IMG/VR virus record: IMGVR_UViG_2740892230_000009 | Span: 1-10,690 of that record | Length of the DNA stretch: 10,690 nucleotides | From: a virus | Taxonomy: Duplodnaviria > Heunggongvirae > Uroviricota > Caudoviricetes | Strand: one strand, 5' to 3' | Shown: positions 2,491-4,880 of the stretch, in pieces | How positions within the stretch are numbered: the stretch's first letter is position 1 | Layout: the number at the start of each line of letters is the position of its first letter | The notes under the pieces: model-generated | The model's input: the letters and a program-made list of their open reading frames with translations, nothing else | What the model was told of the DNA's origin: nothing | Databases searched by the model: none | Translations under genes and position numbers: made by a program

Positions 2491-4880
2491 ACGTCAGCCC
2501 CTTGTGCATATCGTCTGCCACGCGCAGCAGGTGCATTTGATGCTGTGCAAATCTGTCTGGCTTCATCCTGGTCACATGCAACAAAGTGTCCGTTACAGAA
2601 CCGCTGGTAAACCGTACCAAGTGAGCCAAAACGGTTTTTCGTCACGATGATTTCAGCAAATGGCGCGGCGCTACTGTTCTCGTCATATACCGCTTCCCGA
2701 TAGAGCATGATGATTGAGTCTGCGTCCTGTTCAATGCTTCCTGAATCACGCAAATCTGCGTTTGTCGGGCGTTTATTTGGTCGCTTCTCAACATCGCGCG
2801 AAAGCTGACTTAGGGAGATAACTGGCGTTTTCAGGTCTTTCGCCATCGCCTTCAGGCTTCCGGAGATGTGAGCAATTGCGAGGTCGTTGCGGTCTGCTTT
2901 CGGCTTCTCAATCAGGCCAAGATAATCCGCCATGATGAGTGAGAGGTTTGGATTTTCCTGTTTGTGCCGTTCTGCGATTGAGCGTATTTCTTCGACCGAT
3001 AACCGCGAGGCATCGACTACCCATACATCCAAATCTGCAAGCTGACTCATGCCGTTAGCAACACGTGCCCAGCCTTCGTCATCCATCGATGCAGGATTTC
3101 GCAGTACGCTAACCGACATCCTCCCGGCGTTGGCAATGCTTCGCTCTGCAATCTGCAATGCGCTCATTTCCATTGAGAAAATCAATACCCCGCGCCGGAC
3201 GTCAGAACCAGGAATAACACGACTTGCAACGCCTTCGGCAATCTTCAGCGCCAGTTCCGTATTGTGCGTAACGATGTAATCCGTTGTCACATAGAGATGG
3301 CTAGGATGGCTTACCATGATGCAGAGACACTCTTCTGGCTCAACAACTTCAACCGATTTGATACCCACACCAACGTCGCCAAGCCTGTTAATCCCGAGAT
3401 TTTTGCGTAAACGTGGTGAGTGAATTTGCTCTATCAAAGATGATGGCAACTTCATGCTGACCATGTGTGCATCAAGTCCGTCGTGCTTCTCTCCTTTGTA
3501 CGTGTAAACTATTCCCGTCCTGCTGGATTCTTTGGCGGTTCCACCTAAAGATCTAACAAGCCTTACTAATCCTTTAGCTAATTTCTGACTGGATGAACTA
3601 AAGCGGATGCATCCGGACTTCTCAACCCAGCCATCTGTCTCGAGAAGGCCAGTTAAAACACCGGTACGTATTTCTTTGCTAGCACTAAAAATTTCTGCTG
3701 GGATTTCCTTCTCGGACGCACCTTTCCCGATCACCCCAATGCCACGTAGTTTGTCCAATAGTGGGTTCTTCTGGCCTTTTTGGTTGCTTATCAAATAATC
3801 ATTCTCTCCTACCTTAACCAGTCGCAATGGTGCAATTGCATCACTCATGCGGCTCAGGACATATTCTTCCGAGTTGGTGAATTTGATGCCTTTTATCAAC
3901 GAACCGTCACCAAGTAGAGCCCCAATAACCCAACCATCAAGGGGAATATTTTTACCAAAGTCTCCGGTCAAGGATGGCACTCTTATTCTTCCCTGATAAC
4001 GTGTTTTTTGTAGCATCCCAGCCAGCGCATCAGTATCAACAACGCGTTTACCAGTAAATCTTGATGATGAAATTTCCCATAAGTGGTTGTCGGCACATTT
4101 CACGCTACGTCCGTCTTCAAAGGTGACTAAATATGTGAATTTCTTCCCTTGTGGGAAGACGCCAATTACCTCCGAAGGAAGCCCGTCTATTGACGCGATG
4201 CGATCGCCAATTTTGACTTCTCCGTGAGTAGTCCAGGTGCCATCTGCAAGTAAAATCCCTTCGCTTAGCGCCATTGCTTTCCCCATACCAGGACGAGCAG
4301 CGATTATCACCAGGTCTTCTGCGTTCATCCCTCCGGTGATGGCGTCAAGTTCTTCGATTCCGGTCTTCAGGGTATCTGACTCTTCTCCGTTCCTCAGACG
4401 CCTGTCAAGCGTGTCAGTGTAGTCAGTGATGATTTCCCCTAACCGTACAGGTTTAACCTCGTCACGGGGCTTTCTGATGGCTGAGAGACGTTTTACAAGT
4501 TCATCCATCGCCTGACTCGATGCGTCGATGGTTCCGCTTTGGATTGGTTCACGCATTTCATCCATGATTTCCAGCACCAGACGGCGGTGATAGTTATCCG
4601 CGACCATTCCGGCATATCCCTTCAGGTTTGCGGCACTCGGGCAGTTTTTGCTGGTCATCAGGATTGACGTGAAATGCTCCTCTCCGCACGCCTCGGCAAC
4701 CATCAGCGCGTCGATTAGGTTTCTGTTTCGCGCCTGCTTACGGATAACCTCGAAGGCTTTCCGGTAGAGCGGAATTGAAAACGCCTCCGGCTCCAGCGTT
4801 GCCAGAACGTCGCTGGCAGTTGGCGTTAATCCACCAATCAGCAGGCCACCGATAACGCTCGCTTCGATATCCTGTCTCAT
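2487..4880 (-). CDS. DnaB-family replicative helicase containing an in-frame intein
   Basis: 797-aa ORF. N-terminal region resembles the DnaB N-domain; Walker A ARPGMGK is split from its Thr and [12 protein letters not shown] by 339 aa; C-terminal region has [15 protein letters not shown] (DnaB motif). GGGGGA RBS; start overlaps the O stop (ATGA). Confidence 0.9.
3261..4277 (-). other. Intein (339 aa) with LAGLIDADG homing-endonuclease domain, inserted in the helicase P-loop
   Basis: Begins [13 protein letters not shown] (block A-like), ends YIVTHN followed by Thr; two LAGLIDADG-type motifs ([12 protein letters not shown] and [11 protein letters not shown]); extein junction GMGK | T restores the Walker A motif. 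Confidence 0.8.

Follow-up and report, generated by a model that had tools for sequence, protein, structure and literature searches.

A probable mobile class 3 intein in the Walker A motif of a DnaB-family helicase of Shiga toxin phages and other Escherichia coli prophages

Why does the replicative helicase gene of a Shiga toxin (Stx) phage encode a protein about 340 amino acids (aa) longer than a DnaB? The question is raised by a lambdoid phage stretch of 10,690 nt (IMG/VR record IMGVR_UViG_2740892230_000009, positions 1 to 10,690; hereafter the window), which is 100% identical to Escherichia phage TL-2011a (JQ011316), an Stx phage whose record is a partial genome from an O103:H25 strain of a Norwegian outbreak of haemolytic uraemic syndrome. 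The window carries a helicase precursor gene of 797 aa at 2487..4880 on the minus strand, as are all parts of this gene described below, which was taken from the list of open reading frames (ORFs) and is assigned to the P22 gp12-type DnaB family by Pfam matches to the DnaB N-terminal domain and DnaB_C and by TIGR00665. It is identical (100%) to the TL-2011a coding sequence (CDS) AEW24538.1, which is labelled 'hypothetical protein'. An initial annotation, made from the sequence alone, had proposed that an intein with a LAGLIDADG endonuclease splits the Walker A motif of this helicase. Our comparative and structural analysis indicates that the insert is very probably a bifunctional, mobile class 3 intein that separates the invariant Lys of the Walker A motif from the Thr following it.

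The insert is 339 aa long, which matches the excess length noted in the initial annotation. GMGK of the Walker A motif corresponds to precursor residues 198-201, and the insert extends from Ala202 (codon 4275-4277, GCA) to Asn540 (codon 3261-3263), ending with VTHN followed by Thr. As anticipated, in-silico splicing re-forms GMGKT and leaves a product of 458 aa. The exact site could be determined from intein-less alleles such as that of E. coli 2018-10-1CC (NZ_AP021894, WP_000806592.1), which encodes a 458-aa protein annotated as 'replicative DNA helicase' with about 98% identity. When the two genes are aligned, 1017 nt are missing from this allele as one clean gap, which opens right after AAA (Lys), closes right before ACC/ACG (Thr) and is not shiftable by even one base. 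Because intein-less E. coli alleles lack exactly those 1017 nt, the junctions are fixed as GMGK/A...THN/T (slashes mark the junctions), and the junction in the intein-less allele reads ...CGTCCTGGTATGGGGAAAACCGAACTGGCGCTGAAG.... These unambiguous indel boundaries rule out an intein start on a nearby Ser or Cys, so that the first residue, Ala, is the true one. The precursor is accordingly divided into an N-extein of residues 1-201, ending with ...AARPGMGK as the first part of the Walker A motif (4278..4880), the intein Ala1-Asn339 (3261..4277), and a C-extein of 257 aa plus stop that begins with Thr+1 (2487..3260; Thr+1 codon 3258-3260, ACG). The intein has a G/C content of 0.458, compared to 0.536 and 0.516 in the N- and C-extein, respectively.

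Removal of the insert in silico also restores the helicase at the level of domain profiles. The Pfam domain DnaB_C (PF03796), which is found in two pieces in the precursor, gives one continuous match at residues 171-423 of the spliced product (profile positions 2-247 of 255), the score rises from 239.9 to 261.5 bits, and PF00772 is matched as well. TIGR00665 covers the spliced product in one stretch (3-423), with a score of 335.9 that lies below the equivalog cut-off of 385, as would be expected of a phage paralogue.

Class 3 inteins (Tori et al. 2010; criteria taken from PMC3196547) lack an N-terminal nucleophile and share a Trp-Cys-Thr (WCT) motif at positions B:12, F:4 and G:5. They are a rarer type of intein, of which phages offer well-known examples. 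This pattern had been suspected from a Trp in ADNHLW, a Cys in EECLCIMV and a Thr two residues before the terminal Asn, and alignment to class 3 inteins indeed places these residues at B:12, F:4 and G:5. In intein numbering, ADNHLW spans residues 62-67, CLCIMV 317-322 and THN 337-339. Block A (4239..4277) starts with the non-nucleophilic Ala at position 1. In block B (4071..4112), HMMER alignments to the structures 6riz, 6rix and 6bs8 assign Ala62 to B:7, His65 (codon 4083-4085) to B:10 and Trp67 (codon 4077-4079) to B:12. Block F (3285..3332) contains Cys317 at F:2 and Cys319 (codon 3321-3323) at F:4, as determined by alignment to the Mycobacterium chimaera DnaB1 intein (MchDnaB1), the gp206 intein of phage Rizal and the WCT variant of the gp41-1 intein (gp41-1_WCT). 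The predicted initiating nucleophile is Cys319, i.e., the second Cys of EECLCIMV, a choice which the initial annotation had left unspecified; it aligns with the Cys of VRCVEV in MchDnaB1, the Cys of VRCITV in Rizal gp206, and the engineered Cys107 of gp41-1_WCT. In the MchDnaB1 reference (...VRCVEVDNPAHLYL...PTHN), Cys124 and Trp67 are aligned to Cys319 and Trp67 of the window intein. Block G (3258..3281), DYIVTHN/T, comprises Thr337 (G:5), His338 (G:6), Asn339 (G:7) and Thr+1 (G:8), based on the same kind of alignments and on the family counts given below. Thus, the insert has no Ser, Thr or Cys at position 1 and carries Trp67, Cys319 and Thr337 at the WCT positions, together with the general hallmarks of inteins: blocks A, B, F and G, His at B:10, a C-terminal His-Asn and a Thr at +1. 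The initial annotation had associated class 3 inteins with DnaB-like helicases of phages, in line with published work (PMC3196547, PMC6195587, PMC5050341).

A search of 5.8 billion proteins retrieved 85 homologues with E values down to 1e-123, and the intein regions were aligned with MAFFT; counts refer to homologues covering the respective position. The splicing residues are strongly conserved throughout this family, with Ala at position 1 in 45/54, His at B:10 in 63/66, Trp at B:12 in 65/66, Cys at F:4 in 67/73, Thr at G:5 in 69/73, His at G:6 in 67/72, Asn at G:7 in 65/72 and Thr at +1 in 64/71 homologues, while F:2 is a Cys in 28 of 73 members. The intein is preceded by G-K or G-R, as in a P-loop, in nearly all homologues, whose hosts include DnaB, PhoH, Snf2-type and other P-loop nucleoside triphosphatases. 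The whole family therefore sits at the 'classic' Lys/Thr P-loop insertion site described previously (PMC5050341). With regard to a possible place of the window intein in the monophyletic class 3 clade, the searches show that all significant full-length homologues carry WCT and recovered known class 3 inteins, but also, with a strong N-terminal match, the class 1 intein gp41-1.

The fold of the insert was analyzed by profile searches and structure prediction. Pfam detects LAGLIDADG_3 (PF14528) in the precursor with an E value of 7e-6, above the cut-off, along with weak matches to Hom_end and Hint, and the sole NCBIfam matches for the insert are intein-containing models. Sequence searches against the Protein Data Bank (PDB) returned gp41-1, MchDnaB1 (6RIX/6RIY) and the M. 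smegmatis DnaB1 intein (MsmDnaB1, 6BS8) as well as PI-SceI for the central domain, with E values from 1e-9 to 1e-5. An AlphaFold2 model, for which the input was an alignment of 52 sequences covering the intein plus 10 residues on either side, reached a mean predicted local distance difference test (pLDDT) score of 92.6 and a predicted template modelling (pTM) score of 0.91. Its top Foldseek matches are PI-SceI (E 2e-18, query-based TM-score, TMq, 0.70), the Tli and Pho VMA inteins and PI-PfuI, and the class 3 structure 6bs8 is matched with a target-based TM-score (TMt) of 0.78-0.81. The model matches both intein and Hedgehog structures, as is characteristic of the Hedgehog/intein (HINT) fold, and its endonuclease part matches PI-SceI, I-DmoI and I-Tsp061I with the alpha-beta-beta-alpha-beta-beta-alpha arrangement of a two-motif LAGLIDADG pseudo-dimer. 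We therefore predict with confidence from this model that the insert consists of a HINT splicing domain which is split by a LAGLIDADG homing endonuclease domain.

Both LAGLIDADG motifs mentioned in the initial annotation could be located. The first, VIGALLGDG (endonuclease block C, 3903..3929, intein residues 117-125), contains the presumed catalytic Asp124; its G-LLGDG core is nearly invariant in our family alignment A2, in which position numbers exceed intein numbers by 10, and the motif is common to the intein in gene P of phage Min27 and to Rizal gp206 (MAFFT). Block D, SEKEIPAE (3693..3716), includes Lys190 and Pro193, which correspond to the invariant positions K200 and P203 of A2 and align to 'VKNIP' of PI-SceI. 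The second motif, LTGLLETDG (block E, 3630..3656, residues 208-216), carries the presumed catalytic Asp215; D225 and G226 of A2 are invariant, the motif aligns to GLIDSDGYV of PI-SceI, and the LAGLIDADG_3 match supports it. Overall, Asp124, Asp215 and Lys190 are invariant or nearly so across the family, and their counterparts in PI-SceI are the LAGLIDADG aspartates and the K-x-IP segment.

We infer the splicing route by homology to the inteins of mycobacteriophage Bethlehem DnaB (MP-Be DnaB), Dra Snf2, mycobacteriophage Catera gp206 (MP-Catera gp206) and Msm and Mch DnaB1, as experimentally studied class 3 systems (PMC2807308, PMC3196547, PMC6195587, PMC7664689). By analogy, the thiol of Cys319 at F:4 would attack the Lys201-Ala1 peptide bond, yielding a branched thioester at block F that is specific to this class, with His65 and Thr337 as presumed catalytic partners and Trp67 packing the core. 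The hydroxyl of Thr+1 would then take over the N-extein to give the standard branched ester at block G, after which Asn339 would cyclise with the help of His338 to release the intein, and a final O-to-N shift would generate the Lys-Thr bond, restoring GMGKT and an active 458-aa helicase. Since the Walker A motif is split, the precursor should be ATPase-dead and inactive as a helicase until splicing has occurred. For the LAGLIDADG domain, we infer from the sequence that Asp124, Asp215 and Lys190 would support cleavage of intein-less alleles approximately between CCTGGTATGGGGAAA and ACCGAACTGGCGCTG, so that repair could copy the intein in whenever two lambdoid phages or prophages with this helicase share a cell.

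The distribution of the intein is patchy. Of 5,426 complete E. coli genomes, about 700 encode the helicase at 95-99% identity, and the intein occurs in only 24 of these, always with 99.3-100% identity. Carriers include Stx2a prophages of the outbreak lineages O121:H19, O157:H7 and O103:H25 as well as some extraintestinal pathogenic and commensal strains. In the phage collection, 51 records contain the window intein with at least 99% identity across the whole gene, namely Stx2a-, Stx2- and Stx1a-converting phages and TL-2011a. We compared seven intein-containing and four intein-less E. coli alleles. All seven intein-containing alleles have an uninterrupted 797-aa ORF with identical junctions and unchanged splicing blocks. 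In pairwise comparisons among them, the inteins differ at 0-7 of 1017 nt and the exteins at 9-42 of 1377 nt, corresponding to helicase alleles that are up to 3% apart. For instance, strains E06 and GZ2408P share an identical intein, yet their helicase alleles show 42 differences (Fisher p 6.7e-11), of which those closest to the intein lie 22 nt upstream and 39 nt downstream; in other pairs this distance is as small as 10-12 nt. The exteins of intein-containing alleles are no nearer to one another than to intein-less alleles. Such near-identical inteins in diverged helicase alleles indicate recent horizontal spread, as judged from allele sequences. The Thr+1 codon is ACG in 7/7 intein-containing and ACC in 4/4 intein-less alleles, a linkage consistent with a very short co-conversion tract. 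Twelve sites vary within the intein; eight changes are synonymous and the four replacements all lie in the endonuclease or linker part, none in a splicing block.

Outside E. coli, the sole close relative found in species-representative genomes is encoded by Leminorella grimontii ATCC 33999 (NZ_AUUA01000027; L016 1799-4267), in a prophage replication module with an O-like protein, an 822-aa DnaB and NinB. Its intein is 70.8% identical to that of the window and occupies the same GK/A...HN/T site, and the exteins are only 30% and 37.5% identical. As the identity of the inteins far exceeds that of the exteins, the intein must have moved between distantly related DnaB genes. Taken together, the population pattern is that expected of recent homing, to the extent that it can be read from sequences.

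Several points weigh against a fully active mobile class 3 intein. B:7 of the window intein is Ala, and mycobacterial DnaBi1 has a role assigned to Asp62 at this position (PMC6195587), although the residue varies in the family (C, S, T, A, D). Grafting WCT together with Ala1 onto the class 1 intein gp41-1 led to cleavage without splicing (PMC7664689), and since this graft failed to splice, the WCT motif, though required for assignment to class 3, is no guarantee of activity. The mosaic pattern could stem from ordinary homologous recombination between lambdoid prophages instead of endonuclease-driven homing, and phage viability is not strict proof of splicing, as co-resident prophage helicases in enterohaemorrhagic E. 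coli (EHEC) donor strains could complement. The latter points bear on two other explanations. In one of them, the intein splices and its endonuclease is dead, so that general prophage recombination accounts for the patchiness. Lambdoid prophages recombine extensively, and the confinement of the 4/12 non-synonymous variable sites to the endonuclease or linker would be compatible with relaxed constraint; yet the putative catalytic residues of the endonuclease are invariant or almost invariant in the family, the transferred unit corresponds closely to the intein given the short distances to the nearest extein differences, and the ACG codon travels with it in what looks like a very short co-conversion tract. 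We regard this explanation as somewhat unlikely. The other would have the whole gene be a pseudogene with a decayed, non-splicing intein, the phage relying on a different helicase. It could appeal to the two or three partial or pseudogene pieces given by RefSeq, to the precedent of an inactive class 3 intein, Arsp-FB24 Arth_1007 (PMC3196547), and to the many lambdoid prophages of EHEC strains that make complementation possible. However, Arth_1007 lacks His B:10 and Cys F:4, in contrast to the window intein, and the RefSeq pieces merely track the intein boundaries. All seven alleles retain an open frame with every catalytic residue intact, the 51 phage records hardly vary across the gene, and the copy from a distant genus has kept all motifs at 71% identity. 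Moreover, an Stx2a prophage with this gene has lysogenised the laboratory strain WG5, being present at wrbA in the constructed lysogen WG5::TT12A, and the excised copy number of TT12A-specific prophages rises after mitomycin C (PMC11052207). Intact ORFs in a transmissible, inducible prophage argue for an active intein, and we consider decay very unlikely.

The combination of Ala at position 1 with a competent nucleophile at +1 would also fit a class 2-like route, in which the Lys-Ala1 amide undergoes direct attack by Thr+1, without a nucleophilic role for Cys319. But class 2 inteins lack WCT and had been found only in KlbA (PMC3196547), whereas W, C and T are all present here and near-invariant across the family; the window intein is homologous to inteins shown experimentally to be class 3, and Thr is a poor nucleophile for direct amide attack. 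This route thus appears highly improbable, even more so than decay. Finally, a native accessory domain of this helicase lineage, in place of a mobile element, has nothing in its favor beyond the in-frame position. Among the outcomes that would overturn its proposal, the initial annotation had named alignment of the insert as a native helicase domain. Such an alignment is not seen, and a native domain is ruled out by the HINT and LAGLIDADG folds, by the interruption of Walker A between Lys and Thr, and by the insert-less alleles of the same helicase, given that just 24 of about 688 E. coli genomes with this helicase at 95-99% identity carry the insert; its probability is practically negligible. 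A mobile class 3 intein remains the most plausible identity of the insert.

Among characterized inteins, the mycobacterial DnaB-b P-loop class 3 inteins, M. smegmatis DnaBi1 (6BS8) and M. chimaera DnaB1 (6RIX/6RIY), for which mechanism and structure have been described (PMC6195587, PMC7664689), reside in the same DnaB host family as the window intein. They also share its site after the P-loop GK, with the P-loop hydroxyl residue as +1, and begin with Ala1 (ALAL... compared to AMAL... in the window). MsmDnaBi1 (PMC6195587) and the window intein have His65 and Trp67 with identical residue numbers, and Cys F:4 and T-H-N are common to all of these inteins. The sequence match to the mycobacterial DnaB1 inteins has E values of 1e-6 to 3e-5, and the structural match has a TMt of 0.78-0.81. 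However, the mycobacterial inteins are encoded on chromosomes, are mini-inteins of 139-145 aa whose endonuclease has been lost, and have Ser+1 and Asp at B:7, whereas the window intein is of full length (339 aa), has a LAGLIDADG domain that appears intact, combines Thr+1 with an Ala at B:7, and resides in an enterobacterial phage helicase.

The next phage relative is the intein in replication protein P of the Stx phages Min27 and phi24B, with 50.9% identity over the full length. It was noted by Smith et al. 2012, with a function 'yet to be experimentally determined' (PMC3430580). Like the window intein, the Min27 copy lies after the Walker A GK (GHGK/ACPL...ATHN/TEVV) of an Stx phage replication protein, and both share the ECLCIMV block F, the HLW block B and the LAGLIDADG motifs. 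The hosts differ, since Min27 P joins a TOPRIM primase and a gp4d-type helicase in one fusion protein and the window host is of the DnaB/P22 gp12 type, and residue 2 of the Min27 intein is Cys. Gene P of Min27 (L004 1388-3970) encodes the full class 3 signature (HLW, ECLCIMV, THN; Ala1 followed by Cys2). The annotated P protein stops early after the intein and is followed by a separate small 'DNA primase' CDS, which suggests a frameshift or an annotation problem in gene P of this record.

More distant relatives include the mycobacteriophage gp206 and TerL inteins, which are ~28% identical to the window intein in the phage collection. The Catera gp206 intein, which is reported to splice efficiently in a model precursor (PMC3196547), was represented here by an identical-type copy, phage Rizal gp206. 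This is a full-length class 3 intein with LAGLIDADG that aligns end to end with the window intein (28% identity, E 1e-23); its HLW, RCITV and PTHN/T align with the window blocks, and its host is not a DnaB. The top PDB sequence match is the split intein gp41-1 (6QAZ; WCT variant 6RIZ), with an E value of 7e-11 for the WCT variant. It originates from the phage-like DnaB-family helicase gp41 and is very similar to the window intein in block B (C-x-x-x-HL[F/W]) and block G (THN), but natural gp41-1 is a naturally split class 1 mini-intein that starts with Cys1 and has B:12 and F:4 occupied by Phe and Asp, respectively. PI-SceI, the yeast VMA1 intein, is the best whole-structure match, with the same two-domain architecture and with both LAGLIDADG motifs and K-x-IP aligned; it differs as a eukaryotic class 1 intein (Cys1) with an extra DNA-recognition region and ~15% sequence identity. 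For the founding class 3 intein, MP-Be DnaB, the Bethlehem protein gp51, flagged 'may contain intein', was considered as a reference and rejected, as it is a class 1 intein host without the published VSQDQ/TKNTF junction.

The splicing class and mechanism, the P-loop Lys/Thr site, a phage helicase as host and a LAGLIDADG partner are thus already established for inteins of this kind. The novelty lies in this particular intein: Stx2a phages and other E. coli prophages harbor a full-length class 3 intein within their DnaB/P22 gp12-type helicase, and this intein shows signs of ongoing mobility and is systematically mis-annotated. In RefSeq, the Prokaryotic Genome Annotation Pipeline (PGAP) splits the intact 797-aa gene into two or three pseudogene pieces labelled 'incomplete; partial in the middle of a contig' (loci L002, L007, L008 and L010-L012), and in some genomes annotates a CDS of 595 aa that starts at Met2 of the intein; the fragments follow the intein boundaries. 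In GenBank phage records, the gene is named 'hypothetical protein' or 'DNA helicase'. Because this annotation hides the gene, protein-based intein surveys and calls of prophage integrity will miss or misjudge the intein. Literature searches pairing inteins with Stx phage topics found no paper describing the window intein, and only the different primase-helicase intein of Min27/phi24B turned up. E. coli has been cited as a model organism apparently without inteins (PMC5050341), a statement that is qualified by a complete, apparently active class 3 intein in E. coli prophages. As natural intein-less target alleles are abundant, class 3 splicing and LAGLIDADG homing are testable in the native host E. 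coli rather than in heterologous reporters.

Splicing might also be conditional. Oxidation or zinc could reversibly block Cys319, possibly via Cys317, as has been demonstrated for the catalytic Cys of the homologous mycobacterial DnaBi1, and thereby gate Stx2a-phage replication, an idea that we rate as unlikely. If true, maturation of the helicase would serve as a post-translational checkpoint once the phage is induced, controlling Stx2a-phage replication and, through it, the copy number of the phage genome and the output of Shiga toxin. The redox partner of DnaBi1, the non-conserved Cys48, has no demonstrated counterpart in the window intein. Cys61 (B:6) was considered as a conserved partner of this type and dismissed, the Leminorella copy having Ala at this position (block B KAADSHLW).

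The remainder of the window corresponds to a lambdoid early region with N, a Ser/Thr kinase moron, cI, cro, cII, an O-type replication protein, the DnaB-type helicase and nin-region genes. Several ORFs are broken by five N runs, each exactly 10 long (1038-1047, 1333-1342, 1652-1661, 2215-2224 and 6172-6181), which are presumably scaffolding gaps of the partial TL-2011a record; ORFs across these runs (1006-1260, 1257-1739, 2203-2490 and others) are not reliably readable. There are two NinB-like frames on the minus strand, a full NinB at 38-586 (Pfam E 2e-48) and an N-terminal NinB-like fragment at 1006-1260 (MKQIYMLRNEAIRNNAIDAILSLPIDDKSPHEVH...) that ends in an N gap and is either a genuine extra copy or an assembly artefact. 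Within the O-type replication gene (4877-5824, minus strand), a cluster of direct repeats with a 12-nt period, including units such as TTCATGTGCGGC and ATCATGTGCGGT, spans 5267-5409 and encodes a repeated linker of the O protein. By comparison with the lambda origin inside gene O, these repeats are probably origin iterons. Downstream of cI, a block of low G/C content (0.33-0.37) at 8120-9621 on the plus strand carries a eukaryote-type Ser/Thr protein kinase of 348 aa (Pkinase E 2e-46). Ahead of the kinase lie an overlapping 153-aa ORF without Pfam match and a DUF3024 protein at 7711-8052. This block looks like an immunity-region moron of foreign origin.

In related prophages, free-standing genes resembling homing endonucleases are located just downstream of the intein-bearing helicase, e.g., an HNH endonuclease gene in the TT12A Stx2a prophage (L007 19045-19656) and a gene for a NUMOD4-domain protein in O121 strain RM8352 (L002 1-13). 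Selfish nucleases seem to accumulate in the nin region of these phages. A 58-nt remnant, in which the final 52 nt of the intein are followed by 6 nt of the C-extein, is present in E. coli Res13-Lact-ER02-39 (L009 3995-4119) and five sister pig isolates, in a degraded prophage beside a P22-type 'DNA transfer protein' pseudogene. The match runs 6 nt into the C-extein and is fused to sequence matching window positions 6445-6513, on the cII/cro side, and the remnant was accordingly dismissed as a mark of endonuclease cutting at the junction and identified as a deletion scar, evidence that the module with the intein is subject to decay as well.

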